A stretch of 64,000 nucleotides of DNA from Candidatus Zixiibacteriota bacterium (GTDB lineage Bacteria > Zixibacteria > MSB-5A5 > SM1-73). Both the position numbers and the translations under genes were made by a program. Shown here piece after piece: positions 1-30,788 of this stretch. Numbering within the stretch: position 1 is the stretch's first letter; every line of letters begins with the position of its first letter. The stretch covers positions 25,958-89,957 of the forward strand of contig JBAUFO010000083.1 of the NCBI GenBank assembly GCA_049679185.1. The letters run 5' to 3'. Below the pieces are notes generated by a model that did no database searches, was not told the DNA's origin, and saw nothing but the letters and a program-made list of their open reading frames with translations.

Positions 1-471
1 TTCCCGGTAGAAGTGAAGATACTTCTCAATGGTCAGTTTGGTCACTCCATAGGGGCAGAGGGGTCTTGCCGGGTGCTTTTCGTCGGCCGGGAAATAATCC
101 TGCTCTCCATAAATGGCCCCGCCGGTGGAAGCGAAGATGACTTTCTTTACCTTGTGCCTGACACAGGCATTCAGCAGATTCAAGCTGCCGAGGATATTTA
201 CGTCTGCGTCAAAGATCGGATCATCAGTCGACTTCCGCACGTCTATCTGAGCGGCGTGATGGCACAGCACGTCTGGTTTGGTCTTCTCGAAGATCTTACC
301 TATCACCGCGCTTCTGATGTCAACTTTATAGAATTTGGCCTTTTTGTTGACGTTGGATTCCACGCCCGTGGATAGATTATCAATTATGGTCACTTCGTGA
401 GCTTCTTGGATAAATCTGTCCGCTGCGTTTGATCCGATGAAGCCCGCTCCGCCGGTCAATATGATCTTCAC
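1..471 (-). CDS. NAD-dependent epimerase/dehydratase (GalE/SDR-like), N-terminal part; gene runs past the window start
   Basis: Reverse-complement translation from GTG at 471 gives MKIILTGGAGFIGSNAADRFIQEAHEVTIIDNLSTG..., i.e. a Rossmann GxxGxxG NAD-binding motif. A GGGAGGA Shine-Dalgarno sits 5-11 nt upstream at 476-482. The listed + ORF 13..375 is its antisense shadow. Confidence 0.8.
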   Translation of the reverse strand, partial: MKIILTGGAGFIGSNAADRFIQEAHEVTIIDNLSTGVESNVNKKAKFYKVDIRSAVIGKIFEKTKPDVLCHHAAQIDVRKSTDDPIFDADVNILGSLNLLNACVRHKVKKVIFASTGGAIYGEQDYFPADEKHPARPLCPYGVTKLTIEKYLHFYRE

Positions 472-1137
472 CAGTTATCCTCCCACCAGAAAGATAGATG
501 TTCCTCTTGCGCCAATACTCGTTTATCGGACAGGAATTATAGTCGAGTTTCACCTCAAAGTCAACATGAAGGTTTTGATTTTTATTGCCTTACAGTTCAC
601 CTGAAAGAATCATGCCGTTATGATAAAAGCAGGAGTCTTCTGTAAAGGGTCCGAGGAGCCCGGCGAGGATGCCGGGCTCCTGGAAGGGGCTGTTTTACTT
701 GAAAGAAGGAAAGAAATGCAATCATATGTTATAGCAAGATTTATGCCAAATTGATCAAATCTTGCACATTACGGGCGAAATGTAACGTAATCGTTTGTTG
801 CGCACCGCATTACGGAAAACCACTTTAGGCGTGTACCCCTTCTCTCATGCCTCACCGAGCAGGAAAATTCGTAAATTCTTACGAATTACCCAAAAATTCT
901 TTCGACTGAGAAGTGACAAGTTTCACGGTTTAATCTTTTGTTGCACAAGAAATTCTGGGCAAGAAACCGCGAAATCTTGTCAATTCTGCTGCCTGACGGC
1001 CTGGTTTTAATTCAAATGGAGGGAGAAGGTGGGAAAAGCGAGAGATGCCTATAGGTTGAAGGTGTGTAGCTTAGCAGCCTCGAGTGACTTGCTCCCGAGA
1101 ACAGGATAACACCCGGGTCTGCGGCCTGAAGGTTCAG

Positions 1138-1449
1138 TCAGATCTTTACTGCGGTTCCGCTCACGGTCACCATGAGCATGCCCTCTCGTACAGTCTCATA
1201 GTCCAGATCAACTCCCACAATTGCGTTTGCTCCGAGAGCGGCAGCATTCTCCTCCATCTCCGTGACAGCGATATCTCTGGCTCTTGTGAGCTCTTTTTCG
1301 TAGGCTGCAGAACGGCCTCCCACGATGTCGGTTATCGACGCGAAAATATCCTTTATGAGATTTGCGCCCATGATGGCCTCGCCGGTGACGATGCCCAGAT
1401 ACTCCTTTATCTCCTTGTCCTGGATGGTTGGTGTGGTGGTGACGATCAT
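1138..1449 (-). CDS. YbjQ/UPF0145 family (heavy-metal-binding-like) protein
   Basis: 103 aa, [36 protein letters not shown]...[25 protein letters not shown]; a characteristic full-length YbjQ-fold sequence. Confidence 0.85.
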
Positions 1450-1542
1450 CGAATTCCTCCTTTACTCTGTTTCGGTTGTCTCATTGAGAATTCGCCCGAT
1501 GAATCGGGCGACTACGAGGTCATGTTTGATGGTTCGGGCTAT

Positions 1543-2676
1543 CTAGATTTTGATCTCAAAGATTCTATACTTCTTATAGAGCTTTGCTCCCAGAAGCTTG
1601 AGCACTCGATTCATGAGGGTGTTGTCCTCCAAGACCCAGGACATCTCGGCCCAGGTGTATCCTCTTTTCACCCCGACGTTGTAGCTTTGCACGTAAAAGA
1701 CCGTATCAATCCCCCTTTTTTGAAATTCGGGGGTCACCCCCATAGTGATTACGCGAACGCCGTCGATCTTTTTTCTAATCTTGGAGTGCCAGAGCAGCTT
1801 GAGGATTCCAAAGGGGAAAAGCCTTCCGTTCAATCTGGCAAGTACCTGGTTGAAGTCGGGTAAAGCAAGCGAAAAACCTGCCGGTCTCCCATCCACCTCC
1901 GCTATGAAGATCATGTGAGGATCCACGATCTGTTTCAGATTCTTAGCCAGGTGATCAAACTCCTCATCGGTCATGGGAACGAATCCCCAGTTCTTGCTCC
2001 AGGCGGCGTTGTAAATCTGCTTTATCAGCTTGATCTCTTTTTGAAATTCCTTCATGTCGATGTTTCTGATTCTCACATTCTGCCTTTTTCTAATGCTCTC
2101 CGCCATCCTGACCACTCTTTGCGGAGCGGGCAGGCTCTTGTCAATGAAATATGCATAAAGGTCCTTGGCTTTGACCATGCCGTACCTCGCCGCGAAAACC
2201 AGGTAGTAAGGGGGATTGTAGGTCATCATGATCACCGGCCGGGAGTCGAAACCCTCCAGCAGGAATCCCCATTCTTCGTTGGAGGAGAAATTCGCCGGGC
2301 CGCGCATGATCTCCATTCCTTTGGATTTGAGCCAATCCCGAACCTTGTCCAGAAGCGCTTTGGCAACTTCGTAGTCGTTCACGCATTCGAAGAATCCGAA
2401 GAACCCGACTTTCTCCTGGTGGTACTTTATGTGATTGTGATTGACTATACCGGCGATCCTCCCCAAGATCTTCCCATTCCTCTCTGCCAGATAGAGAACC
2501 ACCTTCGCATGTTTGAAGAAAGGATTCTTTTTTCTATCTAAGAATTCTTTTCTCTCGACGATCAGAGGAGAAACCCAGTGAGAGTCGTCCTTGTAGATAC
2601 GCCAAGGAAGTCTGATGAATCCCATCAGGTCACTTTTTGTTTCTACGACCCTGATACTTGGCTTTTGAGTTGGCAT
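1543..2676 (-). CDS. GNAT-fold acyltransferase, ~377 aa (FemAB-like / Acetyltransf_6-like); candidate N-acyltransferase partnered with the adjacent alpha-oxoamine synthase
   Basis: Length and layout match the ~380-aa GNAT-fold acyltransferase class. Same strand as the upstream AOS gene, 103 nt downstream of it. Family call rests on recalled sequence features, not a search. Confidence 0.55.
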   Translation of the reverse strand: MPTQKPSIRVVETKSDLMGFIRLPWRIYKDDSHWVSPLIVERKEFLDRKKNPFFKHAKVVLYLAERNGKILGRIAGIVNHNHIKYHQEKVGFFGFFECVNDYEVAKALLDKVRDWLKSKGMEIMRGPANFSSNEEWGFLLEGFDSRPVIMMTYNPPYYLVFAARYGMVKAKDLYAYFIDKSLPAPQRVVRMAESIRKRQNVRIRNIDMKEFQKEIKLIKQIYNAAWSKNWGFVPMTDEEFDHLAKNLKQIVDPHMIFIAEVDGRPAGFSLALPDFNQVLARLNGRLFPFGILKLLWHSKIRKKIDGVRVITMGVTPEFQKRGIDTVFYVQSYNVGVKRGYTWAEMSWVLEDNTLMNRVLKLLGAKLYKKYRIFEIKI

Positions 2677-2779
2677 TTGCCTTCAGAGGAATGCTGGCAG
2701 GTGTTTTTTCGCCGCCACTCGATGCCGGTTGGTGGAGAGCAGATGCAGCCCGCGGGAAATGAAGTATTTGAATCCGGTT

Positions 2780-3961
2780 CTAAATGACGCCCATCTTCTT
2801 GCCCACCCTTTCAAAGACCTTCAGGACCCTGTCCAGCTGCTCATCGGTATGTGTGGCAGTGTAGCTGGTGCGGAGGAGTTGGGAACCGGGAGCGACGGCG
2901 GGGCTGATTATGGGGTTGACGAATATGCCTTCATCCGAGAGCATCTTCCAGAATTGGAAGGTCTTCATGTCATCGCCTATGTAGATGGGAATGATGGGGG
3001 TCTGCGTTGGTCCTATGTCAAACCCCAAAGCTTTATACTCCTTGTGCATTCTCCTGGTGATCTCCCAGAGCCTCTCTCTTCTCTCCGGCTCGTTCTCGAT
3101 TATATCCAGAACTGCAAGGCAGGTCGCCACTGCGGCAGGCGGCGGGCTGGCGGAGAATATCAGCGGGCGGGAGAAATGCTGGATGTAATTAATTACCCTT
3201 TCGGTGCCCGCGATGAAGCCGCCCAGCGACGCGAACGATTTGGAGAAGGTGCCCATCACCATGTCCACCTCGTCCTCCACGCCAAAATGCTCTGCGGTGC
3301 CCCGGCCATTCTTACCCAAAACACCGATGGAATGAGCATCATCCACCATCACCCGGGCACAGTGCTTCTTGGCTAACTTCACTATCTCCGGTAGGTTGGC
3401 TATGTCTCCCTCCATGCTGAACACTCCATCCACCGCGATCAATTTTCCCGCGTTGTTTTCGCAGTTGCTCAAGACCCGCCCCAGATCAGACATGTCGTTG
3501 TGCTTGAACTTCACCACGGTTCCGTAAGATAGCCGGCAGGCATCCACTATGCTGGCATGATCCGATCTGTCGATGACGATATAGTCTTTCCGGTTCACCA
3601 GCGTGGCTATGGTTCCCAAATTTGTCTGGAAACCGGTGGAGAAGACCAAGACAGCTTCCTTTTTCATGAACTTGGCCAGTTTCTCCTCCAACTCCTCGTG
3701 GATTTCCAGAGTTCCGTTTAAGAACCTGGATCCGGTGCACCCGGAGCCAAACCTTTCCACCGCTTTAACGGCGGCCTCTTTCACCTTGGGATGCGAGGTT
3801 AAGCCCAGATAGTTGTTGGAACCGATCATGATCATCTGCTTTCCCTCGATGGTCACCTCGGTGTCCTGGCCGGAGGAGATAGCCCGAAAGTACGGGTAGA
3901 CCCCCAGCTTCTTTACCTCATCGGCCTCGGTGAAGCCTTGGCATTTTTCAAACAGGTCCAT
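2780..3961 (-). CDS. PLP-dependent alpha-oxoamine synthase, serine palmitoyltransferase-like (Spt/BioF/Kbl family)
   Basis: 393 aa. PLP-lysine motif [13 protein letters not shown] matches the TFSKS signature of bacterial SPT rather than GTLGKALG (Kbl) or the BioF motif. Contains DDAHSIG and the C-terminal HT-EQLD region. Confidence 0.85.
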
Positions 3962-4063
3962 TTTTCCTTATGGGATTTGAGATTCGCCGGTTTCGTTAAG
4001 ATTCGCCCTCCGGTTCTCTTTTTGGGACCGGAGTGCGTCGATTGCTGCCTGCTCAAACGCCTA

Positions 4064-4092
4064 ATCTTAAAGAAATGCCTTCCGATTGTCAA
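4064..4092 (-). promoter_or_regulatory. sigma70-like promoter for the AOS-GNAT-ybjQ transcription unit (-35 TTGACA, 17 nt, -10 TAAGAT on the minus strand)
   Basis: Minus strand reads TTGACA (4092-4087) + 17 nt + TAAGAT (4069-4064), about 100 nt upstream of the AOS start at 3961. Confidence 0.45.
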
Positions 4093-4154
4093 GAGAAAAA
4101 AGGAATGTATAGGCAGATCAAGCGATGGTCTTCCGGCGTCATGGGTAGCCTGGG

Positions 4155-5051
4155 CTATTCCTCCTTCTTGTGAACGCTGAGGAGGTCCACTCTGAAATCC
4201 TCCAGGAACTGTGAGATGTTTTCAGCCTGTCTCCCCTGGTAACGTCTCTGAAAGAGTTTGGTCAGAATAGTGGCACCGGACGGAATCTCCTTTGCTGAGA
4301 TACCGCAATAGGTCCCGTTGGAGATGCGGGCGATTTTCATTCCCAGCTTGCTTCCGCCGAAAAGCTGTCCGCTTTTGCTCTTACCGTGGGCGGGATTTAT
4401 CACCAGGATGGGAATCTCTGCTCTTCTGAAATCCTTAGAGATCCTCAGCGTCTCCTGATAGGCAGGCTCCTCCAGGAGATCGGCATACTTGTGGGTCAGC
4501 GGCTCGGGGAAACAATCGCTGATAAGAACGGCGAAGGGTATGAAGTTGGGCGATCTTCTTTTCTCCTGTTTGAACATCTCGACGGCTTTCTTAAGACCAT
4601 CTGCCAGGGGCGTGAAACCGGACGGGGAGAGACGGGCCAAGTTCCCCAGGGTTACCCTCAGATTGTTGGTGGGGTGATTCATGATCTTGGCAGAATTCCT
4701 CTGAAAAGCGATCAAGCCCAAACGATCCCTGTTCCTGTATGCATCGCGATACACTATGGAAAGCGCTTTGGAAACTGCAGGAAGGAAGTGATAGGTCGAG
4801 TAACTGGCATCGGTAATCAGAACCAGGGTGACCGAACTTCTTCCCTGTCTGACCCAGACCCGGAGGTCGGAGGTCTCCAATCTGATTTTGGGCTTAGCTT
4901 CACCTTTTCCACGGGTCACCAAAGCCGCGATTATGCTGGGAAGAATGGCGATGTTCTCTGTGGGAAGGGCTTTTGGTTTCTGAGAGCTGGTAGGCCGTCC
5001 CCGGGTGGAGGTGGTAAGACTTGCTGCCCGCTTACCCACAAACTGCCGCAT
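4155..5051 (-). CDS. von Willebrand factor A (VWA) domain protein, ChlD/BchD C-terminal-like; probably the 3' half of a frameshifted chlD-like gene
   Basis: MIDAS motif DASYS (LVLITDASYS), then GLIAF, GFTPLADGL and AVLISDC beta-strands, a typical VWA fold. The -1 frame upstream of the ATG stays open through the A9 tract at the end of the ChlI-like ORF. Confidence 0.7.
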   Translation of the reverse strand: MRQFVGKRAASLTTSTRGRPTSSQKPKALPTENIAILPSIIAALVTRGKGEAKPKIRLETSDLRVWVRQGRSSVTLVLITDASYSTYHFLPAVSKALSIVYRDAYRNRDRLGLIAFQRNSAKIMNHPTNNLRVTLGNLARLSPSGFTPLADGLKKAVEMFKQEKRRSPNFIPFAVLISDCFPEPLTHKYADLLEEPAYQETLRISKDFRRAEIPILVINPAHGKSKSGQLFGGSKLGMKIARISNGTYCGISAKEIPSGATILTKLFQRRYQGRQAENISQFLEDFRVDLLSVHKKEE

Positions 5052-5203
5052 TTTTCGAGGTGGAGCCTTCTTGGAGAGCTTAAGTTTCCACCGGTCAAAG
5101 TAAGATACCAGCGAACGCAGCGCCTCCTTGGGATTGACCAGCGGAACTCTGGCAACAAGCTGCTTCAGGGAGGGTTTGGGAGAAGATTTTTCGCTTGCAG
5201 GGG

Positions 5204-6346
5204 TTAGGAGTTTTTTTTTACGTCGGCGTCTCCACCGGGCTCAGCCATACCCGTGCCCTTTGGTGCGGAGACTTGAGCGCTGCCCTTTTCCTTCCACATG
5301 TATCCCCATTTTCGGGAGCTCTCCTCAAAGGCATCTTCAATCTCCTCTTGGGTGGGGGGCGGTTCAAGGCCGCCTTCGCGCGTACGGTGGGAGAGCGCCA
5401 GGTGCGAAGACTTCAGTAAGTCTTCCTCCTTGACCGTGGTTCTGCCGTCCAGAGCAGCCGCTGCACAGGCGGTCTTGGTAATCACGATGTCCGGGCGCTG
5501 CCCGTCTACCTTGAGTCGGGCACAAATGGAAGCGGCAATATGGTAAATCTCCTCCCGGACTTCGACCCTGGGAAGGAGAACCTGGGCCTTGGCGATTTTC
5601 CTTTCCAACTTTTCCGCCGCGTCCTTGAACTGATTCTTGAAACCTGGGGGATCCTTTTCAAAAAGAAGGTTGTTTTTGATTATCTGGACTCTGGCTTCCT
5701 CGTCGTTGACCGTTTTGATCAGGCTCGAAAGAGGAAACCGGTCCAGAATCTGCGGGCGAAGCTCCCCCTCCTCCGGATTCATGCTCCCTACAAATACAAA
5801 GCGGGTGGGATGGCTGACGGAAAATCCCTCCCGTTCAATGGTATTCCATCCCAGGGCGGTGGCATCCAGAAGGTCGTCAGTGATGTGATCGGGCAGCAGG
5901 TTGATCTCGTCCACATACAGAATATTCTGATTGGCCTGAGCCAGCAATCCGGGCTGCAAGGCCTTTTCGCCGTCTTTTAAGATTCTCTGCACGTCGATGG
6001 ATCCGATCAACCTGTCCTCGGTAATGCTCAAAGGGAGGTTGATCACTTCCATTCTCAATTCCATTTTGGGAACGTTCTCTCCCTTTTCGAATCTTGATCG
6101 GCAGGATTCGCACCTGTTGGCCGGATCTTGAAAAGAGCATCTGAAAGGGCAGTCGGCGACCACCTCCACCGGCGGCAGGATGTCAGCCAGCGCATAGACC
6201 GCCGTACTTTTGCCCGTACCTTTGGCTCCCCTGATCAGAAGCCCCCCGATTCGCGGATCGACCACATTCAAAAGCAAAGCCAACCTGAGGTCATCCTGCC
6301 CCACGATGGCGCCGAAAGGTAATGTGAGCCTTCCCCGTTTTGACAC
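5204..6346 (-). CDS. Mg-chelatase ChlI/BchI-type AAA+ ATPase with a C-terminal acidic/Pro-rich tail (ChlD-linker-like)
   Basis: Walker A GAKGTGKST, Walker B LYVDEINLL, ChlI-specific Cys-rich insertion CPFRCSFQDPANRCESCRSRF. About half the residues line up with BchI by eye. The C-terminal 55 aa (LEPPPTQEEIEDAFEESS...) resemble the ChlD inter-domain linker. Confidence 0.85.
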   Translation of the reverse strand: MSKRGRLTLPFGAIVGQDDLRLALLLNVVDPRIGGLLIRGAKGTGKSTAVYALADILPPVEVVADCPFRCSFQDPANRCESCRSRFEKGENVPKMELRMEVINLPLSITEDRLIGSIDVQRILKDGEKALQPGLLAQANQNILYVDEINLLPDHITDDLLDATALGWNTIEREGFSVSHPTRFVFVGSMNPEEGELRPQILDRFPLSSLIKTVNDEEARVQIIKNNLLFEKDPPGFKNQFKDAAEKLERKIAKAQVLLPRVEVREEIYHIAASICARLKVDGQRPDIVITKTACAAAALDGRTTVKEEDLLKSSHLALSHRTREGGLEPPPTQEEIEDAFEESSRKWGYMWKEKGSAQVSAPKGTGMAEPGGDADVKKNS

Positions 6347-10989: not shown

Positions 10990-13900
10990 TTGAAGAAAGA
11001 AGAGATTTTCTCTAAGATGAAAAAGAGATTCAAATTTCCCCTTTACTTCGTTTCCTTCGTGCTCTTTGCCTGCCTGCTTTTCTGGGGACTTCTAAACCAA
11101 ACCCAGTTGGTGGAGAATCAGGTCAACCGGGCATTGAGGATTCTCGTCCAGAGCAAGTATGCGCTCAAGGTGAACGTTGGGGATATCAGAGGTGTATTCT
11201 GGCGTGAGCTTGTGATTACGGGTGTAACCGTTGATTTCATCGATGAAACCACCAGCTACAGGATTGCTGACATTCCTTTCCTCAAGGTGAATTACAGGCT
11301 GGCCAATCTGTGGAGAAAGAAGTGGATCCTGGATTCTTTGACCATTGAGCATCCCAGATTCGTGCTGAGAAAGACGGAGGAAGGCAAATTGCTGGTGACG
11401 GTTCCTCGATCCGAAAGAAAAGCCATATCCAAGACGGGGTTATTTGACTTCAAGATTGGAAACCTGAGAATTGAAAAAGGCAGCCTTGAATATCTCTCTC
11501 CTGAGAAACAGTCCAGCATAGATAGCCTGAGCGTTGAGCTTTCCCTGAGCAAAGATGCTGATGGAATCAAGCTCAACTTACACCGAGGCGGTCTGGAGTA
11601 TCCAGAGAAGGACTTCGTCCTACGGAACATAGAAGGCTTTTTCTGGCTGATGAAAGACACCCTGGCCATCGAAGGGCTGAGAATCAAAACAGAAGACTCG
11701 GACGTGGAGATCTCAGGAAACGTGGCTAATCTCAAAGAACCGGAGTTCTTCTTTGCAGTCAAAGCACGACCGGTAGACCTGGAGAACCTCAGGAAGTTTA
11801 CCGGCGTGCGGTTATCAGGAGTGCTGGAGCTGGATGGGACCTGCGAGGGGAATCTCAAAAGATTCGGAGGGCAGGCGACCTTGAACGGTCTGTTTTTCGA
11901 AAGGAGATTCGAACCGATAAGGACCGAGTATTCCTATCATAACAGAAAGTTGACCTTCTCGTACATAAGCGGTCGGGCCTTCGGTTCCCCTGTAAGCGGA
12001 AAGGGGATGTTCGACTTCAGCATAGTACCTGAGGAGTATGAATTCGAGGGAAAGGTTCAAAATCTTGATCTGAACAACATCGCCTTCGGAAGCATCGTCA
12101 CCGCTCTTTCCGGCGAGATTCACATGCGGGGGAGATCCACTTCAGAAGAGGAATTGTTCATGCAGATGGAGGTGAATCTGCAGGAGGGAAGAATCGAGCA
12201 CTACAGCTTCAACCAGGCCGAAGGAATCATCGACGTCACCTCCGACTCGGTGGCTTTTCATCCGCGGTTTCAGTTCCGCTACAAGAACACCGGAATAGCC
12301 TTGACCGGGAAACTGGAGTACGACGGAGAGATCGACATAGATGCCTGGGTCGATTTCAGCGACCTGACGGATTTCCGGGAGCAGATATTCATAAAGGAGA
12401 TGAGAGGGAGGGGAAAGGCTTTCGTTAACTTGGGCGGAAAGACGGAGGATTTCAATATCAAAGGAGAGTTTACGTCCGACTCATGCTACGCTTATGAGCT
12501 TTTCAGTTCAGATGCAAGAATCAAACTCGATATAGCCAACTTCTTGAGCAAACAGAAAGGACAGGTCGACGTTCGTTTTCTGGACGGGGAGGCCTGGGGC
12601 GTGAGATATGACAGCCTGGTCTCCCGATTGAAGGTCGACGATGAATGGATCAAGATAGACACGGCCCGTCTGGAAAGCCAACACCTTGCCCTGAATTTCT
12701 GGGGTGAGTTGGACGTCTCCAAAGTTCCTCAAACTCTGTTGATCTACGAGATACTTTTGGATTATCAGGGGAATCTCCTAAATTCCTCCTCACCCACGGT
12801 GGTGAACATTGACACCCAGGAGGTCCGGATAACGAAGTGCATCCTTTCAGGGGAGACCGGAAAGATCGACGTGTCAGGTATCATCGACTACGAGGAGAAT
12901 ATGGATATTTCTTTAGAGGTATCCGGGTTGGACGTCGCTCCCTGGGCAGCACTTCTTACGTCGGAACCTATTGAAGGGAGGCTCTCCGTTCAAACCATAC
13001 TCCAGGGGAATTTTGAGAGCCCGCAAATTGAGCTAAACGGAGAAATCGAACGACTGAAATTCAAAGGCATGGAGTTGGGAGATCTGAAAACGAATATTTC
13101 ATACAAGGATAAGAAAATAGAGATCAGAGACCTTGCGGTAACCGACCCGGACTGGCGATATACCCTGAAGGGATTCCTGCCTCTGGATTTGTCATTTACC
13201 TCGGTAGAGGAGAGGATTCTGGTGGAATCCCAGGATCTCACCCTTTCAGCGAAAGGAAAGCGGCTGGAGTTGATTAAGCTGTTTATCCCGATGATCGAAT
13301 ATCTGAGAGGCGACTTTGCGGGTGACTTAGAGATTGCCGGAAGCCTGCTTCATCCACGATTCGACGGGCAGATGACCGTAAAAGAGGGGAGCTTGAAGTT
13401 CGCTGAGCTGGCCGATCCGGTGGAAGACCTGCTGGTGGAGATGAGGATGAAGGATGAGAATCTCATACTGGACAGAGTAGGCGGTTCCATGAAGAGCGGG
13501 AGGGGTCGCAAGGGCGGATTCTTCGCCAGGCTGTGGAGAATCTTCTCGCCGGGCCAGCAAATCGAAGGGGAGCTCACGGGCTTCGGAACCATCGACCTGA
13601 AAGACATACAGAGCATAGAGTACAGCTTATACTTCTCCGGAGAGAGGATTCCCATCGATTACGAGTATGCCGATCTTTCCGCGCTAGCTGATCTGACCGT
13701 GGAGATATCGGGTAGGTCCCCGCCCCTGGTTTCCTCCGAGATTTTTCTCTCCGAGTTCTTCTACCGGGAGTCTTTCACGTCGTCCGGTTCCGGGACCTTC
13801 GTCACCGCCAGTCACCAGGAGACCGACCTGTGGGACTGGAATCTGGACGTGTCTGTCGCCAACAACTGCTGGATCATGAACGACGACGTGAATCTGGAAT

Positions 13901-14610
13901 TCAGCGGCGATGTGCGGGTGCTGCGGGAGGGGGGCGAGCTCAGGATCCTGGGTGACATGGAGATCATCAGGGGAAAGTACTTCCTCTACGGAACCAAGTT
14001 CAAGATTGAAAAAGGATCGTTCTTCTTTGACAACGTGGAGAGGATCGACCCCAAGATCGATTTTCTGGTCTCCACCAGGCTATGGGGAGCAACTCCCGGG
14101 TCTTCCGGTGGCGGGACCCTTTTGGGCACGGGGTCGAGCAACGAGATCAAGTTAGCTATCGGTGGCACCCTTTCGGAGCCGGAGGTCGAGCCGGCACCTG
14201 GCTCACCATATGCCAAGGATGACATTCTGGAACTTCTGGCTTTTCAGCAGGGCATGGGCTCCGTCGATTCGGTGGGAGTGGGGAGCTTGTTCCAGGAGAG
14301 GGTAATCAAGAGCCTGGGTGGTGCTTACAGCAGCCGATTCTTAGAGAGCATCGCCGGCAGGACCCTGGGGGTGGAGACATTCGAGATAGTTCCCACCTGG
14401 AGCGAGAAGTTCCGGCTTACCGATGCTCAGATTACCATTGGCAAATACGTCTCGGACAAGGTCTATCTGCGTTACACCCGCCGCCTCTCCCAGTCCAGCG
14501 GGCAGGAAACAGGTGTGGAATACAGGTTGAATAAACACCTTTTTTTTGAAGGACGCAAGGACAAAGCGGGGCTTTTCCATCTGGGTCTAAATCTCAATTG
14601 GGAATATTGA
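10990..14610 (+). CDS. tamB: TamB/AsmA-like translocation and assembly module protein (DUF490-type C-terminus)
   Basis: 1206 aa, N-terminal signal-anchor helix, long beta-rich repetitive body, C-terminal ...LNLNWEY like the TamB DUF490 tail. Immediately followed by an Omp85 gene. Confidence 0.7.
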   Translation: MKKEEIFSKMKKRFKFPLYFVSFVLFACLLFWGLLNQTQLVENQVNRALRILVQSKYALKVNVGDIRGVFWRELVITGVTVDFIDETTSYRIADIPFLKVNYRLANLWRKKWILDSLTIEHPRFVLRKTEEGKLLVTVPRSERKAISKTGLFDFKIGNLRIEKGSLEYLSPEKQSSIDSLSVELSLSKDADGIKLNLHRGGLEYPEKDFVLRNIEGFFWLMKDTLAIEGLRIKTEDSDVEISGNVANLKEPEFFFAVKARPVDLENLRKFTGVRLSGVLELDGTCEGNLKRFGGQATLNGLFFERRFEPIRTEYSYHNRKLTFSYISGRAFGSPVSGKGMFDFSIVPEEYEFEGKVQNLDLNNIAFGSIVTALSGEIHMRGRSTSEEELFMQMEVNLQEGRIEHYSFNQAEGIIDVTSDSVAFHPRFQFRYKNTGIALTGKLEYDGEIDIDAWVDFSDLTDFREQIFIKEMRGRGKAFVNLGGKTEDFNIKGEFTSDSCYAYELFSSDARIKLDIANFLSKQKGQVDVRFLDGEAWGVRYDSLVSRLKVDDEWIKIDTARLESQHLALNFWGELDVSKVPQTLLIYEILLDYQGNLLNSSSPTVVNIDTQEVRITKCILSGETGKIDVSGIIDYEENMDISLEVSGLDVAPWAALLTSEPIEGRLSVQTILQGNFESPQIELNGEIERLKFKGMELGDLKTNISYKDKKIEIRDLAVTDPDWRYTLKGFLPLDLSFTSVEERILVESQDLTLSAKGKRLELIKLFIPMIEYLRGDFAGDLEIAGSLLHPRFDGQMTVKEGSLKFAELADPVEDLLVEMRMKDENLILDRVGGSMKSGRGRKGGFFARLWRIFSPGQQIEGELTGFGTIDLKDIQSIEYSLYFSGERIPIDYEYADLSALADLTVEISGRSPPLVSSEIFLSEFFYRESFTSSGSGTFVTASHQETDLWDWNLDVSVANNCWIMNDDVNLEFSGDVRVLREGGELRILGDMEIIRGKYFLYGTKFKIEKGSFFFDNVERIDPKIDFLVSTRLWGATPGSSGGGTLLGTGSSNEIKLAIGGTLSEPEVEPAPGSPYAKDDILELLAFQQGMGSVDSVGVGSLFQERVIKSLGGAYSSRFLESIAGRTLGVETFEIVPTWSEKFRLTDAQITIGKYVSDKVYLRYTRRLSQSSGQETGVEYRLNKHLFFEGRKDKAGLFHLGLNLNWEY

Positions 14611-18315: not shown

Positions 18316-20484
18316 CTACCGCTGATCCCTCAAACTCCTCAGAGTCTCCCTTACCTTTTTGGTTTTACCGGAATCAGCGGAGAATTGCAGAAACTGTTCT
18401 AATATTCGTATGGCGCTTTCCTTTAAGCCCTTTTTATGGTAAATCTCGGCCAAAAGAAGGTAGGCATAATCAGAATCCGGCTTGAGTTTGATCACTTTTT
18501 GATATTCCGCTTCTGCTTCGTCCAGACGATTAAGTGCAAAGCACACGTCTCCCAAGCGTGAATGCGCCTCCACGAAATCCTCCTGTATCTCGATTGCCTT
18601 TCTGAAATACTTGGTCGCCTTCTCGTACTCCCTTCGGAGAGCGTATATTTTCCCCAAATCGGTAAACACCATGGGATCTTTCACATCCAACTTCAGGACC
18701 TTTTCATAATGCCTGATCGCGTTTTTCCATTTTCCTCCAGACGCATAAATCTTTGCCAAATCAGTGTGCGCTTTTACATATTCGGGCTTCAGCCTAATGG
18801 TCTCTTGGTATTCTTGCTCGGCTAAGTCCAAAACACCCTGCCGGTAATACGTCCTCGCCAAGAAGAAATGCACGTCTGGAAAGAGAGGGTCTTGTTGAAT
18901 GGCTTTTTGAAAAGCTCTCAGTGCGTCAGCAAGTCTTCCCCGGTTATAGTATTCTATCCCCTCCTCCAAAAGGACAACCTCCGGATATATTTCTCTTTGT
19001 TTCTGGTTTTCTTTCTCCGCCTCCTGGATCATCCCTTTTTCGGTCAAGTATCGAGCTAGGAAGAAGTGGCCGGAGCGGCTCCTCTTGGGGTCCAAATCCA
19101 TCACGTCTCGAAATCTCTGAATGGATTTGCCCTCGGAAACATTCAAAGCCACCCAGGGAAGAGTTGAGAAAAAGGAGACTGCCACCATAATTGTGGCAAC
19201 GTATTTGAAGGCGGCGAGACCTCGGTTCAGCTTTAGGAAGAGTAGCAGAGCCAGTATGGTGTATCCCAGTGACAATGTAGAAAAAAGATCCCAATCACGA
19301 GGGGCTGCCAAGGCAGGGTCGATTACGAAGTGAAAAAAGAGCTGGAATCCGGTTACCAGAAGAAGAAAGCGAACAGCAGGGTTCTTGAAGTAGGACTTCC
19401 TCCCGACGGTCGCAAGGACAGCAAGAACCAAAGCGAGACCCACCGGCGAAAGCAATAGATGCTGATTTAAGAGGTCCAGTAGGTGAGCCCAGGAGAAAGA
19501 AGTGTACCCGGGGGCAAATCTATGTTCGACGGGCAACACAAAGATACGAATCAATCCGGGCTTGCTCTCAAACACGTGGAACAAAAACAGAATCCCCGCA
19601 AGCAATAGAGCCAGCTCCAACCCCCAGATCACCTTCCTGTTTACTCGGCTCCTTTTCTTCAGCAGGAGCAGGTAAGCCAGTGAAGGCAGAAGATAAAAGC
19701 TGGCGAAGTGAAAAGCCACCGCTATCACGAACGGCAAGAGGACCAGAAAGAGGCTCCCCCCTTCCTCAATCCATTTTAGGGATAGGACCAGGTAGGCGAA
19801 AACGGAGAGATAGGCAAAAGAATAGTGCTCCGCGGACCCAAAGTAGAGCTGAACGCTTCCCATAGTCAACAGAATGGAAAATACAAAGACCTTCTCGAAC
19901 AGATCCTTTCCCAGGTACTCTGAAAACCAAAACACGAAGAAGACAAAGATCCCTCCCGCCGCTACGCTCAGAAGTTGGTATGTTAATTGAGCGTCGGCCG
20001 AGAAAAGGAGATTAAGGAACTTGTGTGTGTTGATATGAAGCGTGACCTCGAGAAATTCGCTCCACGCCCGGATTACCCCGCCCTTATTTAGAGCTGAAAC
20101 CAGGCCGAGTCCATCCCCCCAAAAATACGTTCTGGATCTCAATACCCAAAATAAACCCACAGCCAGGAGACTGAACCCTGCATACCAGACGTACAGTTTG
20201 TTCCCCGAGATCCGTTCGTAAAGAGATGCCAGAGGCTTTCTTGCCATCATCCTCATGCCCCGATTAACCCGGGGGACGAATACCGAAAGAGACAGGACCG
20301 TTAAGACTATCTTGATTGGCAGAGGAAAGTAAGCCAGATGATTGATCCCCCAAACGCGATGATGCGGAAAGAAGCTGGTCAGCAGGTGAGCCAACAGGAT
20401 CACACCACAAATGGTAGCAGCAATCGTCAACGCTGGTGAGGAAACGAGAGAGGTTTCACGCAGAGTTTTCGTTTTTTTCTTCAT
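18316..20484 (-). CDS. polytopic membrane protein (~11 TM) with C-terminal TPR repeats; paralog 1 of a four-member family (GT-C/TMTC-like suspected)
   Basis: 722 aa. N-terminal ~450 aa of hydrophobic helices with conserved motifs RVWGINHLAY, WGDG and PRDWDLFS shared with the 34.7-41.0 kb array; C-terminal ~250 aa of TPR repeats. Confidence 0.8.
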   Translation of the reverse strand: MKKKTKTLRETSLVSSPALTIAATICGVILLAHLLTSFFPHHRVWGINHLAYFPLPIKIVLTVLSLSVFVPRVNRGMRMMARKPLASLYERISGNKLYVWYAGFSLLAVGLFWVLRSRTYFWGDGLGLVSALNKGGVIRAWSEFLEVTLHINTHKFLNLLFSADAQLTYQLLSVAAGGIFVFFVFWFSEYLGKDLFEKVFVFSILLTMGSVQLYFGSAEHYSFAYLSVFAYLVLSLKWIEEGGSLFLVLLPFVIAVAFHFASFYLLPSLAYLLLLKKRSRVNRKVIWGLELALLLAGILFLFHVFESKPGLIRIFVLPVEHRFAPGYTSFSWAHLLDLLNQHLLLSPVGLALVLAVLATVGRKSYFKNPAVRFLLLVTGFQLFFHFVIDPALAAPRDWDLFSTLSLGYTILALLLFLKLNRGLAAFKYVATIMVAVSFFSTLPWVALNVSEGKSIQRFRDVMDLDPKRSRSGHFFLARYLTEKGMIQEAEKENQKQREIYPEVVLLEEGIEYYNRGRLADALRAFQKAIQQDPLFPDVHFFLARTYYRQGVLDLAEQEYQETIRLKPEYVKAHTDLAKIYASGGKWKNAIRHYEKVLKLDVKDPMVFTDLGKIYALRREYEKATKYFRKAIEIQEDFVEAHSRLGDVCFALNRLDEAEAEYQKVIKLKPDSDYAYLLLAEIYHKKGLKESAIRILEQFLQFSADSGKTKKVRETLRSLRDQR

Positions 20485-25275: not shown

Positions 25276-27714
25276 ATGAAATCAAGAAAAGGATTTAAGA
25301 TACTGATCGGCATTGTTGCGGGGGTGATCCTCCTGCTGATTGTGGCTTCTTTCGCGGTGAAGATCATCTTCACCAAGGAGAAGCTGATGTCCATGCTGGT
25401 TCCGAAGATTGAACAGGCGCTCAAAAGACAGGTGAAAATCGACGACGTCACCGTCTCCATCTGGGGAGGCCTGGGCGCGGACGTCAAGGGAATGAGAGTT
25501 CTGAATCCTCCCGGCTTTGTCCACGAGGAGCTCTTCAAGTTCGATCAACTGTCTATCAGAGTGAACTTCTGGCCCCTGCTGCGCAAGAGAATAGAGATCA
25601 AAAAACTCATCCTGGAGAATCCGGAGATAAATCTGGAAAAAGAGAAAAAAGGCGTCTCCAACTTCGGAGATCTGATCGAGAGCAAAGGCGGAGCGATAGT
25701 CATACCATTCTCCTTTGATCAGCTTCAGATAGGAAATGCCAAAATCGTCTACTTAGATAGCCAGACCGGCAAAGAGATAGTTCTGCATCAGTTTGCCCAC
25801 GACGCCAGGCTCGAGCTGGATGACAAGATGGAGAATGCCAGAATAACCGGTGTGATCAAAGTGGAAACCGTCGAGATGAATTTTCCCGACCGCAAGCAGA
25901 CGTTGCCGCCCCTCAGCTTGTCGGTGGAGCATGACATCAACCTCAATATGCCTGGTGATTTCGTTGAGGTGAATGCGCTCAAGATCGGCATCGCCAAGAT
26001 CATCTTAGAGATGAAGGGGAGACTGGATAAAGTGAGCACAGCCCCGGTTTTGAATCTAACCGTTCAATCAGACGGGATCTCTCTGGAGGATGTACTCGCT
26101 TCCCTGCCCAAGGCAGAGTCCTCGCCTCTTACCCAGCTCAAAACGTCCGGGAATATAGCTCTGTGGGCCTCTCTGAAGGGTGATTTCGGAGAGAAGGCTC
26201 CGGTGCAGATTGAGGGAAAGGTCACCCTGCAGAACGGCAGAGTTGACTTTGCCAAAGCACCTAAACCGCTTGATATACCTTACGGCGAGATAAACTTCAA
26301 TAATCGGAGCTTAAGCTTCTTCTCCTCCGACGCAAGGTTGGGCGAAGCCCCGCTGGAGCTTAAGCTGGTGGTGGAGAATTTCGCTGACCCCAGCCTCACC
26401 TCGCAGTTGAAAACCGACTTAAACCTTGCCATCCTGGGCGAACTGGTCACGCTTCCGGAAAAGACCGATCTGGCGGGCCGGGCAGAGATAAACGTCAAAG
26501 CTTACGGTAAGATCAAACAGTCGGAAAAGATGAGTTTTTCCGGGCGAGTCGATCTTAAAAAAGTGGAGGTGGCCACGCCTGCCCTGGGAGTTCCGGTCAG
26601 AAACCTGGATGGCACCATCTCCTTCAAGGAATCGGACGTCGATATTCCCGGGCTGAGTCTCTCCATGGGCAAGTCGTCTCTGAGCCTCAAGGGTAAGGCC
26701 TACGGGGCCATTCCCTATCTGCTTTCTCCCGAGCGGGGGAAACCTCTCCTCAGCTTCAACTTGGATTCCCCGTTCCTGGATCTGGATGAGATCCTTCCGG
26801 TGTCCAAGGAGGATGAGAAGAAGGGAGAGGCCGCCGCAAAAGGCAGCATCCCTTTACCTGACATAAACGCCAGTGGACAAGTCTCCATTCAGAAGCTGAT
26901 TTTCCGCAAGGTTGAACTCACCAATGTCTCCTCCAAAGTGAACCTGGTCGACGGCGTGCTGACATTCGACAACGCTGCCGCCAAGGTTTACTCTGGCTCG
27001 GTAAACGGTAAGGTGACCAGTGACCTTCGGAACATGGATCAGACGGAGTTCGATATGGATCTGAACGCCAGTCAGATCGAAGCCAACGATTTTCTTTCCA
27101 GGTTCACCGGTTTCGACGACCATCTCTTCGGCAAGCTGAACCTTGAGGCGACCTTCTCCGGTAAAGGGAATCGGCTGGAGGATATCCGCAGAACTCTTTC
27201 CGCGAACGGCAGGGCTAACTTCGCGGAGGGAAAATTGATCGGCTGGGCGCTCTTAGACAGCCTGGCTTCTTTTCTGCAGATTAAGGGTTTGAAGGAGCAG
27301 CAGATCAGAACTCTCAAGAATTCCTTCAGAATCGCAGATGCGCGGGTCTGGTTTGACGATCTCAGCGTCTCAACGAAGGACGGGGATTTTAGCCTGGTCG
27401 GGTCCTTGGGGTTGGACGGCTCGCTGGACTACGCCTTGACCGCCGTACTTTCATCGGAGCTCTCCTTGAGATTCGACGCTCTGGGTGATATTTCGGACTA
27501 TCTCAAGAACGAACAGGGAAGAGCGGTCCTTGACCTTAAAATAGGTGGCACCGCAAAGAAGCCAAAATTCTCCCTTGATACTTCCAGGGCGCAGGAAAGG
27601 TTAAAAGCCCAGCTGAAAGGAAAGGCGGAGGAGAAGAAGGAAGAGATACAAAATCAGTTGAAAGAAAAGGCAACTGATCTGCTTGAAGGCCTGCTCAAGA
27701 AGAAGAAGAAATGA
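25276..27714 (+). CDS. AsmA-family protein (N-terminal membrane anchor, large periplasmic beta-rich domain)
   Basis: 812 aa, N-terminal TM, AsmA-like N-domain, Lys-rich C-terminus. Confidence 0.65.
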   Translation: MKSRKGFKILIGIVAGVILLLIVASFAVKIIFTKEKLMSMLVPKIEQALKRQVKIDDVTVSIWGGLGADVKGMRVLNPPGFVHEELFKFDQLSIRVNFWPLLRKRIEIKKLILENPEINLEKEKKGVSNFGDLIESKGGAIVIPFSFDQLQIGNAKIVYLDSQTGKEIVLHQFAHDARLELDDKMENARITGVIKVETVEMNFPDRKQTLPPLSLSVEHDINLNMPGDFVEVNALKIGIAKIILEMKGRLDKVSTAPVLNLTVQSDGISLEDVLASLPKAESSPLTQLKTSGNIALWASLKGDFGEKAPVQIEGKVTLQNGRVDFAKAPKPLDIPYGEINFNNRSLSFFSSDARLGEAPLELKLVVENFADPSLTSQLKTDLNLAILGELVTLPEKTDLAGRAEINVKAYGKIKQSEKMSFSGRVDLKKVEVATPALGVPVRNLDGTISFKESDVDIPGLSLSMGKSSLSLKGKAYGAIPYLLSPERGKPLLSFNLDSPFLDLDEILPVSKEDEKKGEAAAKGSIPLPDINASGQVSIQKLIFRKVELTNVSSKVNLVDGVLTFDNAAAKVYSGSVNGKVTSDLRNMDQTEFDMDLNASQIEANDFLSRFTGFDDHLFGKLNLEATFSGKGNRLEDIRRTLSANGRANFAEGKLIGWALLDSLASFLQIKGLKEQQIRTLKNSFRIADARVWFDDLSVSTKDGDFSLVGSLGLDGSLDYALTAVLSSELSLRFDALGDISDYLKNEQGRAVLDLKIGGTAKKPKFSLDTSRAQERLKAQLKGKAEEKKEEIQNQLKEKATDLLEGLLKKKKK

Positions 27715-27785: not shown

Positions 27786-28718
27786 ATGAGCTATTTAAAC
27801 CCAATCGTTAGAGTTACAGTTTGTATTTTCGTCTTCCTTTTTTCACCCCAGCTCTCGCATTCGCAGATTTCAGCAGATCCTTCCCGTTTTGAAATCCACG
27901 CCCACGATCAGAATATTGCCTCCGAAGTAGAGACCATACTGGAATCCTCCTATCTGAGAATCTCCGACTTCCTGGAAGATTCCCTGACCGACGCGGTCAG
28001 CGTTTACGTGGTGGATAGCGAGGAGGAGTTTGTCGCGATGGTCGGGAGCAAGTTCCCTGACTGGGGGGTGGCCTGCGCCATTCCGGGTCGCAATCTGATC
28101 ATCTTGAAATCGCCCCTGCAGTTTAAGTACTATCGTCCATTCTCTCAGGTGGTCGCGCACGAGCTGGCCCACATATTCATCGGAAAGCTCTCCGGGGAGG
28201 GAAGAGTCCCCCGATGGCTGGATGAGGGGTTCGCCATGTATCATTCTCAAGAGTGGAGAATTGGGCAGGACGTAGCCGTGGCGCGCGCGGTTTTGACCGG
28301 CTCGATCTTGCCCCTGTCCCAGATAGAGTCGGTCAACGCCTTCAAGGAGAGTAAGGCTCAACTGGCATATACCGAGAGCTTTTTGGCGGTATCCTATCTC
28401 TACGGTGAATTTGGAGAGGGAACCATAAAAGAGCTGGTAACGCACCTGTCAAAAGGCACCAGCATAGATTTAGCATTCATGAGAACCATTGGATCGAATT
28501 ATCTTTCATTCCAGTTGGAGTTCGAGAAATACATCCAGACAAAATACAACTGGGTGAGCTTCCTTGGTGACACTTTCCTGCTCTGGATCGGGCTTGCCTT
28601 TTTGATCGTGTTCCTCTATCTTATCAAAAGACGACGCAGCAGGAAGACCCTGGAAGGCTGGGAACTGGAGGAGCAGAGGCTTAAGGGTGAAGATGAGGAA
28701 GCGAAGGATCAAACATAG
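27786..28718 (+). CDS. HEXXH zinc metallopeptidase-like protein (peptidase MA-like) with signal peptide and C-terminal TM anchor
   Basis: Signal peptide, HELAHIF zinc motif plus a downstream Glu (EGFAMYH), C-terminal hydrophobic helix then a charged tail. Confidence 0.55.
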   Translation: MSYLNPIVRVTVCIFVFLFSPQLSHSQISADPSRFEIHAHDQNIASEVETILESSYLRISDFLEDSLTDAVSVYVVDSEEEFVAMVGSKFPDWGVACAIPGRNLIILKSPLQFKYYRPFSQVVAHELAHIFIGKLSGEGRVPRWLDEGFAMYHSQEWRIGQDVAVARAVLTGSILPLSQIESVNAFKESKAQLAYTESFLAVSYLYGEFGEGTIKELVTHLSKGTSIDLAFMRTIGSNYLSFQLEFEKYIQTKYNWVSFLGDTFLLWIGLAFLIVFLYLIKRRRSRKTLEGWELEEQRLKGEDEEAKDQT

Positions 28719-29586
28719 AATAGAATATTGGATTACCTACCTGATGGGGGCCTTTGTTAGGATCATTCCCTATCGCCTGGCACTTGCCCTGGGTTCTTTT
28801 CTGGGATGGCTGGCATTTGACATATTTCGGGTAAGGCGTAAAGTAACTCTGATCAATCTGAGAAATTCAATGGGCAGGGGGAAAGATGGATTGGCAGGAA
28901 TCGGTCGCAGAGCTTACCGGAATTTCGGAAAATCCATGGTGGAGTATCTGTTGTTTCCGTCTTTGGACAAAGAAAAGATTGAGCAAGTGGTGGAATTTGA
29001 GGGCGCCGAGCATTTTGATGAGGCACTGAAGAGAGGAAAGGGGGCAGTTCTGGTGGCCGGACATTTTGGCAGTTGGGAACTGATGGGCGCGGCCACCAGT
29101 CAGAAAGGATATCCGATTGACTTCCTGGTGGGAGAACAACACAACATCCTGGTGGATAATTTGATGAACGATTACAGAAGATCCATGGGAATCGGAATAA
29201 TAAAAATGGGAGCCGCGGCCAAGGGGGTTATCAGGGCTCTAAAGAACAATCGTTTCGTGGCTATGCTCTCCGACCAGGACGCTGGCAGTGATGGGACGGT
29301 GGTGGAGTTCTTCGGACGGCCCGCCTCAACGCCCAAAGGTCCGGCAGCCTTCGCCCTAAAGATGGATGCTCCCATCGTGATGGCATTCATCATAAGAGAA
29401 AATGAGAGAAAGCAGAAGGTAATCGTAGAAAAGGCGATATTTGGCGAGAAGACCTCTGATAAAGAGGAAGACATCCGGAGACTGACCCAGGCTTATACCC
29501 GAGTGCTGGAGGAATATGTTCGCAAATATCCGGATCACTGGTTCTGGCCTCACCGGCGGTGGAAGAGCACGACCCGGGATTATTGA
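28687..29586 (+). CDS. lipid A biosynthesis (Kdo2-lipid IVA) lauroyl/myristoyl acyltransferase family
   Basis: LpxL/HtrB family features: N-terminal membrane helix, AGHFGSWE (HX4D/E-type motif), and the C-terminal RYPDHWFWPHRRWK tail. Confidence 0.85.
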   Translation: MKMRKRRIKHRIEYWITYLMGAFVRIIPYRLALALGSFLGWLAFDIFRVRRKVTLINLRNSMGRGKDGLAGIGRRAYRNFGKSMVEYLLFPSLDKEKIEQVVEFEGAEHFDEALKRGKGAVLVAGHFGSWELMGAATSQKGYPIDFLVGEQHNILVDNLMNDYRRSMGIGIIKMGAAAKGVIRALKNNRFVAMLSDQDAGSDGTVVEFFGRPASTPKGPAAFALKMDAPIVMAFIIRENERKQKVIVEKAIFGEKTSDKEEDIRRLTQAYTRVLEEYVRKYPDHWFWPHRRWKSTTRDY

Positions 29587-29765: not shown

Positions 29766-30788
29766 ATGAGACATAAGCGAATTCTGATCATCCAGACTGC
29801 CTTTATCGGCGACGTCATACTCTGTACACCTCTAATCAAGGGCCTGAAAAAGACCTTCCCCGATTCATTCATCTCCTTTTTGCTCATCCCCGAGACGGAG
29901 AACGTTTTGGAAAACAATCCGCACTTAAGTGAGATATTAGTCTACGATAAAAGGAAGAATAAGGGGATTGGAAGTTTCCTTCAGATCATCATCAGAGTCA
30001 AACAGGGGGAGTTCGATCTGGCGGTTATACCGCACAGGTCTCTGCGGAGCGCGCTTCTGGCCTATCTTTCCCGGATACCGGTGCGGATCGGCTTTGACAA
30101 AAGCACAGGATCCTTTCTGTTTACCCGCCAGGTGGTTTACAACAATAATGTTCACGAGGTAGACCGCAATCTCTCTTTGCTCTTGGATTTTAGTTCCCGC
30201 CTTAAGGACACGTCACCTGAGCTCTTTCCATCCTCTGAGGATTTTTCTTATGCCCGAAAACTGCTGAGTGATTCCGGCATCACAGAAGGGGACAAGATCG
30301 TATGCGTTGCTCCCTGCTCGGTCTGGGCAACAAAAAGGTGGCTGCCCGAAAGGTTTGCCGAGGTCGCCGATCTTCTGCTGAGGGAGGCAAGAGCAAAGGT
30401 GATATTCCTGGGCTCGGAGGAGGATCGTGCTCTTTGCGAAAAGACAGCAAACTCGATGACGGAAAGGCCCGCGGTCTTAGCAGGAAAAACCAGCGTGCTC
30501 CAATCCGCCGCAATAGTATCGTTCTGTAAGGTGATCCTCTCTAATGATAGTGCCCCAGTTCATATAGCATCCGCCATGAAAATACCAGCGGTGGCAATAT
30601 TCGGGTCCACCGTCCCTGAGTTTGGTTTCGCTCCCTATGGTGTTAATCATGTAATCATTCAAAAGAAGATGGAGTGTCGTCCCTGCGGGATACACGGAAA
30701 AAGAAAATGCCCAAAGGAGCATTTTCGATGTATGAGGGAGATCACAACAGAAGAAGTTTTTCAAGCTGTGCTTTCCCGGTTGGCATAA
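29766..30788 (+). CDS. ADP-heptose:LPS heptosyltransferase (glycosyltransferase family 9, WaaF/WaaC-like)
   Basis: ILIIQTAFIGDVILCTP N-terminus and a C-terminal SNDSAPVH...IFGST motif typical of GT9. Confidence 0.85.
   Translation: MRHKRILIIQTAFIGDVILCTPLIKGLKKTFPDSFISFLLIPETENVLENNPHLSEILVYDKRKNKGIGSFLQIIIRVKQGEFDLAVIPHRSLRSALLAYLSRIPVRIGFDKSTGSFLFTRQVVYNNNVHEVDRNLSLLLDFSSRLKDTSPELFPSSEDFSYARKLLSDSGITEGDKIVCVAPCSVWATKRWLPERFAEVADLLLREARAKVIFLGSEEDRALCEKTANSMTERPAVLAGKTSVLQSAAIVSFCKVILSNDSAPVHIASAMKIPAVAIFGSTVPEFGFAPYGVNHVIIQKKMECRPCGIHGKRKCPKEHFRCMREITTEEVFQAVLSRLA

Follow-up and report, generated by a model that had tools for sequence, protein, structure and literature searches.

A probable two-gene sphingolipid backbone module, spt-bcerS, in a Zixibacteria genome without cerR at the locus

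Among the closest described systems to the locus considered here are the ceramide synthesis genes of Caulobacter and Sphingomonas. The bacterial ceramide synthase (bCerS) of Caulobacter has been defined both genetically and biochemically (PMC11324152), and its reductase CerR has been reported to be periplasmic (PMC11087976). Sphingomonas wittichii encodes counterparts of this system: the serine palmitoyltransferase (SPT) Spt is Swit_3900, AcpR is Swit_3899, bCerS (CC_1154/CCNA_01212) corresponds to Swit_3908 with 45% identity over 97% coverage, and CerR (CC_1164) corresponds to Swit_3897 with 40% identity (PMC11324152 Table S2B). In Caulobacter and Sphingomonas the bCerS gene lies about 8 genes from spt, in a larger cluster with acpR, cerR, lptF/G paralogs and a ceramide kinase gene. 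We analyzed a stretch of 64,000 nucleotides (the window) from a Candidatus Zixiibacteriota bacterium (contig JBAUFO010000083.1), in which, by contrast, bcerS stands immediately 3' of spt and none of those partner genes is present. The arrangement also differs from that of sphingolipid-producing Bacteroidota, where the three genes are reported to be unclustered (PMC11334938). We propose, with a probability of roughly 0.8, that this region is a two-gene sphingolipid backbone module, spt-bcerS, that has its own conserved promoter and the chemistry of which can be inferred from the characterized enzymes.

The first gene of this unit (spt; 2780-3961, minus strand) is an open reading frame for an α-oxoamine synthase (AOS) of 393 residues, which matches PF00155 over residues 42-382 (222 bits). 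It contains [13 protein letters not shown], with TFSKS beginning at residue 238 and the pyridoxal phosphate (PLP) lysine at K241; this lysine, a DHASI motif from residue 134 and a DDAHS motif from residue 207 all align with the SPT of Sphingobacterium multivorum (PDB 3a2b/8guh; NF047600). The two proteins are of equal length, share the lysine motif GTFSKS(L/F)ASLGGF and are 52.7% identical end to end, and the S. multivorum enzyme and its model are the best matches of the AOS in both the PDB and hidden Markov model (HMM) searches. The NCBIfam ranking is led by NF047600, the SPT model of the CFB type (593 bits), followed by TIGR01825 (437), Kbl (412), BioF (402), ALAS (273) and CqsA (226); in the PDB ranking S. 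multivorum SPT (457.6 bits) precedes a BioF/Kbl enzyme (325), Sphingomonas SPT (313-315), Kbl (288) and two cysteate acyltransferases (254.6 and 249.4). A neighbor-joining tree of 60 sequences, which carries no bootstrap values and leaves out CapB/SulA and CqsA, united the window AOS, the AOSs adjacent to bCerS genes and S. multivorum SPT in one group with S. wittichii SPT as its sister, and placed E. coli Kbl, the Thermus BioF/Kbl enzyme and E. coli BioF outside it. The aligned lysine motif reads TFSK[ST] in the SPT group as against TLGKA in E. coli Kbl, TLSKA in the Thermus BioF/Kbl enzyme and TFGKG in E. coli BioF. Judged by its sequence, the AOS is Spt-like and neither Kbl nor BioF. The original prediction, which was made from the letters of the window alone, had assigned it to Spt by the TFSKS motif and proposed placing it among the AOS clades; the motif contrast holds, the HMM and PDB scores both favor SPT, and within the limits of the tree the protein falls with SPT.

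The second gene (bcerS; 1543-2676, minus strand) is an open reading frame for a protein of 377 residues that resembles tandem-GNAT N-acyltransferases. It has the GNAT-superfamily acyl-CoA N-acyltransferase fold and is soluble, without transmembrane segments. Standard collections say little about it: there is a weak Pfam match to Acetyltransf_1 (30 bits), there was no match in the NCBIfam search or among the solved structures searched by sequence, and the closest homologs come from metagenome-assembled genomes of Candidatus Zixiibacteriota. An exact-sequence search of the assembly index gave no entry for the protein. We took as bCerS and CerR references the proteins of the S. wittichii cluster identified via PMC11324152 Table S2B; the S. 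wittichii SPT sequence was taken from the PDB alignment and followed to the genomic protein and its locus, and genes were counted along the cluster. Swit_3908, the position of which was checked gene by gene, has 382 residues and no recorded Pfam match. The window protein aligns with it over 376 of its 377 residues with 36% identity (E 7e-76), and a comparison with hhalign gave a probability of 100% (E 5.8e-59). The two proteins are similar in size, collinear over their whole length and share the motifs KNPF[FY]xHA, NWGFVP, GRLFPF and LEDN; Pfam and NCBIfam families cover neither of them well, and both are genomically linked to spt. The GNAT protein is on these alignments a full-length homolog of the bCerS lineage, the comparison with the Caulobacter protein being an indirect one that passes through Swit_3908. 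Its earlier identification as bCerS is borne out by this end-to-end homology to the S. wittichii counterpart of CCNA_01212.

An exhaustive, profile-free family search yielded 1,895 clusters at 50% identity (E<=1e-30), and with a narrow family alignment as query we scanned species-representative genomes and surveyed the loci of the 80 top-ranking relatives of the GNAT gene. By their record titles these loci belong to more than 15 phyla or candidate phyla and include Zixibacteria, Latescibacterota, Bacteroidota, Ignavibacteria, Calditrichia, Gemmatimonadota, Planctomycetota, Anaerolineae, Acidobacteriota, Spirochaetia, Nitrospiraceae, Verrucomicrobiota and Deltaproteobacteria, among others. In 51 of these loci the bCerS-like gene is directly preceded, on the same strand, by a gene for a Spt-like AOS, the median distance being about 80 nt as compared with 103 nt in the window, and in 54 the two genes adjoin on one side or the other; a homolog of the CerR counterpart occurs within 6 kb in 47, usually divergent from spt, and all three genes are present together in 45. 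Further, two natural fusion proteins, P0265 (780 residues) and P0337 (777 residues), combine an N-terminal AOS with a C-terminal bCerS-like domain. NF047600 is the best model for the AOS part of both, and the window AOS shares 61% identity with the N-terminal half of P0337. In a third fusion, P0354 (940 residues), a bCerS-like domain is joined to a fatty acyl-AMP ligase. The recurrent spt-bcerS pair, often accompanied by cerR, and the natural fusions provide independent comparative support for the pathway derived from Caulobacter. Other bCerS-like fusions, among P0241 and P0388, comprise a tandem double bCerS (784 residues) and a PilZ-bCerS protein (503 residues), the latter hinting at control by cyclic di-GMP in some lineages. 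The remaining 26 of the 80 bCerS-like genes (L009, L016, L018, L023-L027, L033, L036, L044, L052, L058, L064, L071, L077, L082, L083 and others) have no adjoining Spt-like AOS; some of their contigs are short, and in L062 the AOS is about 4.5 kb off. The bCerS-like family may hence include dispersed pathway genes or paralogs with other acceptors.

A candidate sigma-70-like promoter, TTGACA-17-TAAGAT, lies 5' of spt (4064-4092, minus strand) and scored 10/12 in a consensus scan. The scan found 5 promoter-like sites against 3.6 expected from shuffled sequence, which is no enrichment. The site is, however, the one conserved island in the otherwise poorly conserved DNA upstream of spt, whether the gene further upstream encodes a VWA-domain protein or SpoU: among the window, the complete Zixibacteria genome CP070839.1 (L001), L004 and L005 there is no variation in the -35 hexamer and its flank, and the -10 hexamer reads TAAGAT or TAATAT. 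This conservation supports a dedicated promoter for the spt-bcerS unit, predicted from sequence, and with it the earlier idea that the unit is transcribed separately.

The steps that we propose for the module are modeled on the enzymes of Sphingobacterium, Sphingomonas and Caulobacter; what was observed is homology, recurrent adjacency, fusion and promoter conservation. From L-serine and a long-chain acyl thioester, Spt, as a PLP-dependent AOS, would form 3-ketosphinganine by condensation, and the bCerS homolog, a soluble tandem-GNAT protein, would then add a second acyl chain to the amine, yielding an oxo-ceramide or a dihydroceramide; this order of steps follows the Caulobacter model (PMC11087976). 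The keto-reduction, which would be the task of CerR or KDSR, is not encoded at the locus in the sublineage of the window, and the reductase is therefore either encoded elsewhere in the genome, in which case it would produce dihydroceramide, or missing.

The absence of cerR from the locus in this sublineage is the sole mildly unusual point of the module. Searching the window with CerR by tblastn gave no match at E<=0.01, a simple motif check of its other large open reading frames revealed no further obvious short-chain dehydrogenase/reductase (SDR), and AcpR, ceramide kinase, Swit_3902 and fatty-acid hydroxylase likewise had no tblastn match in it. The upstream neighbor of spt in the window, L001, L004 and L005 encodes a VWA-domain protein or SpoU and not CerR, as opposed to the more distant Zixibacteria L006, L007, L008 and L011, where cerR is divergent from spt and next to it. 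A search with a Zixibacterial CerR homolog gave no match attributed to CP070839.1 among the 120 closest matches listed. CerR homologs of Zixibacteria and of S. wittichii (L006:5363-6361, minus strand; L007:6478-7464, minus strand; L003:8157-9062, plus strand) start at the GxxGxxG motif with no obvious signal peptide, in contrast to the periplasmic location reported for CerR of Caulobacter (PMC11087976). We dropped the lack of a signal peptide as an argument that the SDR of the window is not CerR, the CerR homologs of L006, L007 and S. wittichii also starting at the Rossmann motif.

Several observations count against a complete sphingolipid pathway or lower the certainty of the assignments. Neither the 64-kb window nor the flanking DNA of the three closest genomes yielded a CerR homolog, and so the full pathway of the Caulobacter type is not demonstrated; nor was a dedicated acyl carrier protein or acyl-ACP synthetase found near the module, and the searched literature contained no lipid data for Zixibacteria. 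The score of the AOS with NF047600 (593 bits) is below the curated equivalog cut-off of that model (640), and it falls short, too, of the cut-offs set for the beta- and alpha-proteobacterial SPT models. These models were built on particular phyla, and because of this the shortfall, which is not unexpected for a protein from another phylum, lowers certainty and does not exclude membership; the host is here a Zixibacterium and not a member of the Bacteroidota. The limits of the neighbor-joining tree noted above weigh in the same direction, and sequence comparison of this kind does not discriminate between serine, alanine, glycine and cysteate as the amino-acid substrate of the AOS. A rather doubtful scenario for the missing gene is that the Zixibacteria sublineage comprising the window, CP070839.1 and their relatives lost cerR from the spt locus and retained spt-bcerS under the conserved promoter; these organisms would then either use 3-oxo-ceramide as a membrane lipid or possess a non-orthologous reductase, for which a possible candidate would be the syntenic GalE-like SDR described below.

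The local lack of CerR also leaves room for the pair of AOS and GNAT protein to make a different N-acylated amino-ketone lipid, such as a 1-deoxy-ceramide (from alanine or glycine), a lipid on a sulfonolipid-type base (from cysteate), or one that stays at the 3-oxo stage for want of a reductase. AOS enzymes can switch their amino-acid substrate by few substitutions, and the two cysteate acyltransferases in the PDB ranking are detectable homologs of the window protein. In a Black Sea study the same enzyme set was reported to yield 1-deoxyceramides (PMC11334938 supplement). We nevertheless consider a different product unlikely, as the AOS is far nearer to the characterized serine-using SPT than to the cysteate acyltransferases, and in other Zixibacteria and further phyla its nearest relatives belong to complete spt-bcerS-cerR trios.

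The original prediction had taken the region for the whole trio of Caulobacter, with a downstream NAD epimerase/dehydratase as CerR. The elements that it named (the AOS, a GNAT protein of about 377 residues at 103 nt, YbjQ, the epimerase and a promoter-like site) are all present in the sequence, and Spt and bCerS stand as members; the epimerase does not. This gene (1-471, minus strand) is truncated at the start of the window, which holds the N-terminal 157 residues of its product, and the fragment is 90% identical to a protein of 315 residues in L001. Over its full length the L001 ortholog matches solved UDP-glucose 4-epimerases (323 bits with 4zrm of T. maritima, 268 with 2p5u of Thermus thermophilus and 261 with 7ys8), and galE ranks first among its NCBIfam models, with a score of 182 bits that is below the cut-off of 262.3. 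With Swit_3897, in contrast, the epimerase shares 26.6 bits (E 6e-4) at 25% identity over the N-terminal 177 residues, that is, the Rossmann region with the N-terminal GxxGxxG of the extended-SDR fold. The Zixibacterial CerR homolog of L006 scores 115 bits with Swit_3897 and only 61 bits with the epimerase of the window type, and CerR-type proteins score best with the HpnA and OleD models whereas the SDR of the window type does so with galE. By these comparisons the window SDR is of the GalE type, presumably a UDP-hexose 4-epimerase, and not CerR, which it resembles at the generic SDR level only; grouping with UDP-hexose 4-epimerases was the outcome that had been named beforehand as refuting that component.

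For these reasons it is very unlikely that the full trio is nonetheless in place, with the GalE-like SDR serving as CerR, possibly through non-orthologous displacement within the sublineage. It can be said for such a displacement that the window, L001 and L005, which have no adjoining CerR, keep the GalE-like SDR two to three genes 3' of bcerS, that L006, L007, L008 and L011, with CerR next to spt, have no GalE-like gene in their flanks, and that CerR itself belongs to the epimerase-like extended-SDR superfamily. Yet true CerR homologs adjoin spt divergently, and the SDR of the window sits two genes and 666 nt, with a conserved promoter-like site of its own, 3' of bcerS; moreover, synteny among genomes that are 65-90% identical is weak evidence.

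That the AOS is a housekeeping Kbl or BioF, for threonine degradation or biotin synthesis, standing by chance beside an unrelated acetyltransferase has next to no probability, for although the corresponding models still reach about 400 bits, owing to the close relatedness within the family, and automatic names from JGI and NCBI for SPT homologs of the Sphingomonas type include 'glycine C-acetyltransferase/8-amino-7-oxononanoate synthase', the SPT model is ahead by about 180-190 bits, the lysine motif is TFSKS and not TLGKA or TFGKG, tdh, bio genes and a Zn-dependent Tdh were not found adjacent, and Spt-like AOSs recurrently adjoin, or are fused to, members of the bCerS family across phyla. Down to E 1e-30 the SDR matches sugar-nucleotide enzymes in the PDB and no threonine dehydrogenase, and a pairing of Kbl with an SDR-type Tdh is therefore unsupported, in agreement with the earlier argument against it.

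The preferred reading, a two-gene spt-bcerS backbone module, thus concerns a system of a known and widely distributed kind, which is unsurprising to specialists because Spt-like genes have been inferred earlier, from metagenomes, for about 40 phyla (PMC11334938). Searches of that Black Sea paper gave no mention of Zixibacteria, and in the searched literature we found no paper linking this group to sphingolipids. The module adds a candidate phylum to the likely bacterial ceramide producers, and its compact two-gene form would permit heterologous expression. Zixibacteria are uncultured.

The two genes that follow the module, ybjQ and the GalE-type epimerase gene, are neighbors by descent within close relatives and stand outside the pathway. 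YbjQ (1138-1449, minus strand; 103 residues; PF01906, 138.6 bits), which had been counted with the module, is encoded 93 nt from bcerS and 666 nt from the epimerase gene. Its gene is directly 3' of bcerS in the window, L001 and L002 only; L005 lacks it, and the wider set of 80 loci gave a single match, 7 kb away in L010. Hence, being 3' of bcerS in close relatives only, ybjQ is possibly a co-transcribed neighbor and no conserved member of the module. A promoter-like site 5' of the epimerase gene, TTGACT-17-TATAAT (536-564, minus strand; consensus scan 11/12), is identical in L001, which suggests that this gene would be transcribed on its own.

The spacer between ybjQ and the epimerase gene also holds a conserved non-coding element with a 10-bp GC-rich hairpin (638-760, minus strand), recognized by conservation across genomes. 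Its core is a block of 77 nt (647-723) that is 100% identical between the window and L001, as against 83-90% identity of the flanking proteins. It recurs at L001:11920-12045 and at L005:11447-11566, the L005 copy having two compensatory stem changes. A further promoter-like site (749..721) is found directly upstream. A scan of positions 1-4400 against Rfam gave matches at chance-level E-values only and none for the element, which may be a small RNA or a leader.

The wider architecture in the window, L001, L004 and L005 can be written KARI-SpoU-(ChlI-VWA)-spt-(variable insert)-bcerS-(YbjQ)-...-GalE-lactamase_B, without cerR. The optional pair between SpoU and spt consists of a gene for a ChlI-like AAA+ ATPase and one for a VWA-domain protein, a split pair similar to BchD/CobT (window 4155-6346, minus strand; L005:6234-8407); it is missing in L001 and L004, where SpoU is immediately 5' of spt. 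The junction of spt and bcerS is an insertion hot spot in Zixibacteria, with five unrelated open reading frames in five genomes (L001:9207-9872, L002:6840-7733, L004:9110-9970, L006:7890-9797 and L007:9012-9740). The inserts include a protein of 221 residues with a lipoprotein-like N-terminus, a collagen-like repeat protein and proteins of 242 to 399 residues. Their counterpart in the window (2677-2779) is the 103-nt spacer only.

Elsewhere in the window there are genes for envelope functions, encoding a TamB-like protein, an AsmA/YhdP-like protein, a lipid A late acyltransferase, a family-9 heptosyltransferase and a membrane protein of the sulfatase family (10990-14610, 25276-27714, 28687-29586, 29766-30788 and 53665-55677). 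The lipid A and outer-membrane genes are consistent with a diderm cell, in which lipids of this type might reside in the outer membrane. The window also encodes four paralogs of 658-722 residues that have C-terminal TPR repeats and a common N-terminal motif (...FFP..R.WG...L.Y); one is at 18316-20484 on the minus strand, and the other three stand in tandem on the plus strand (34773-36749, 36776-38779 and 38965-41019).

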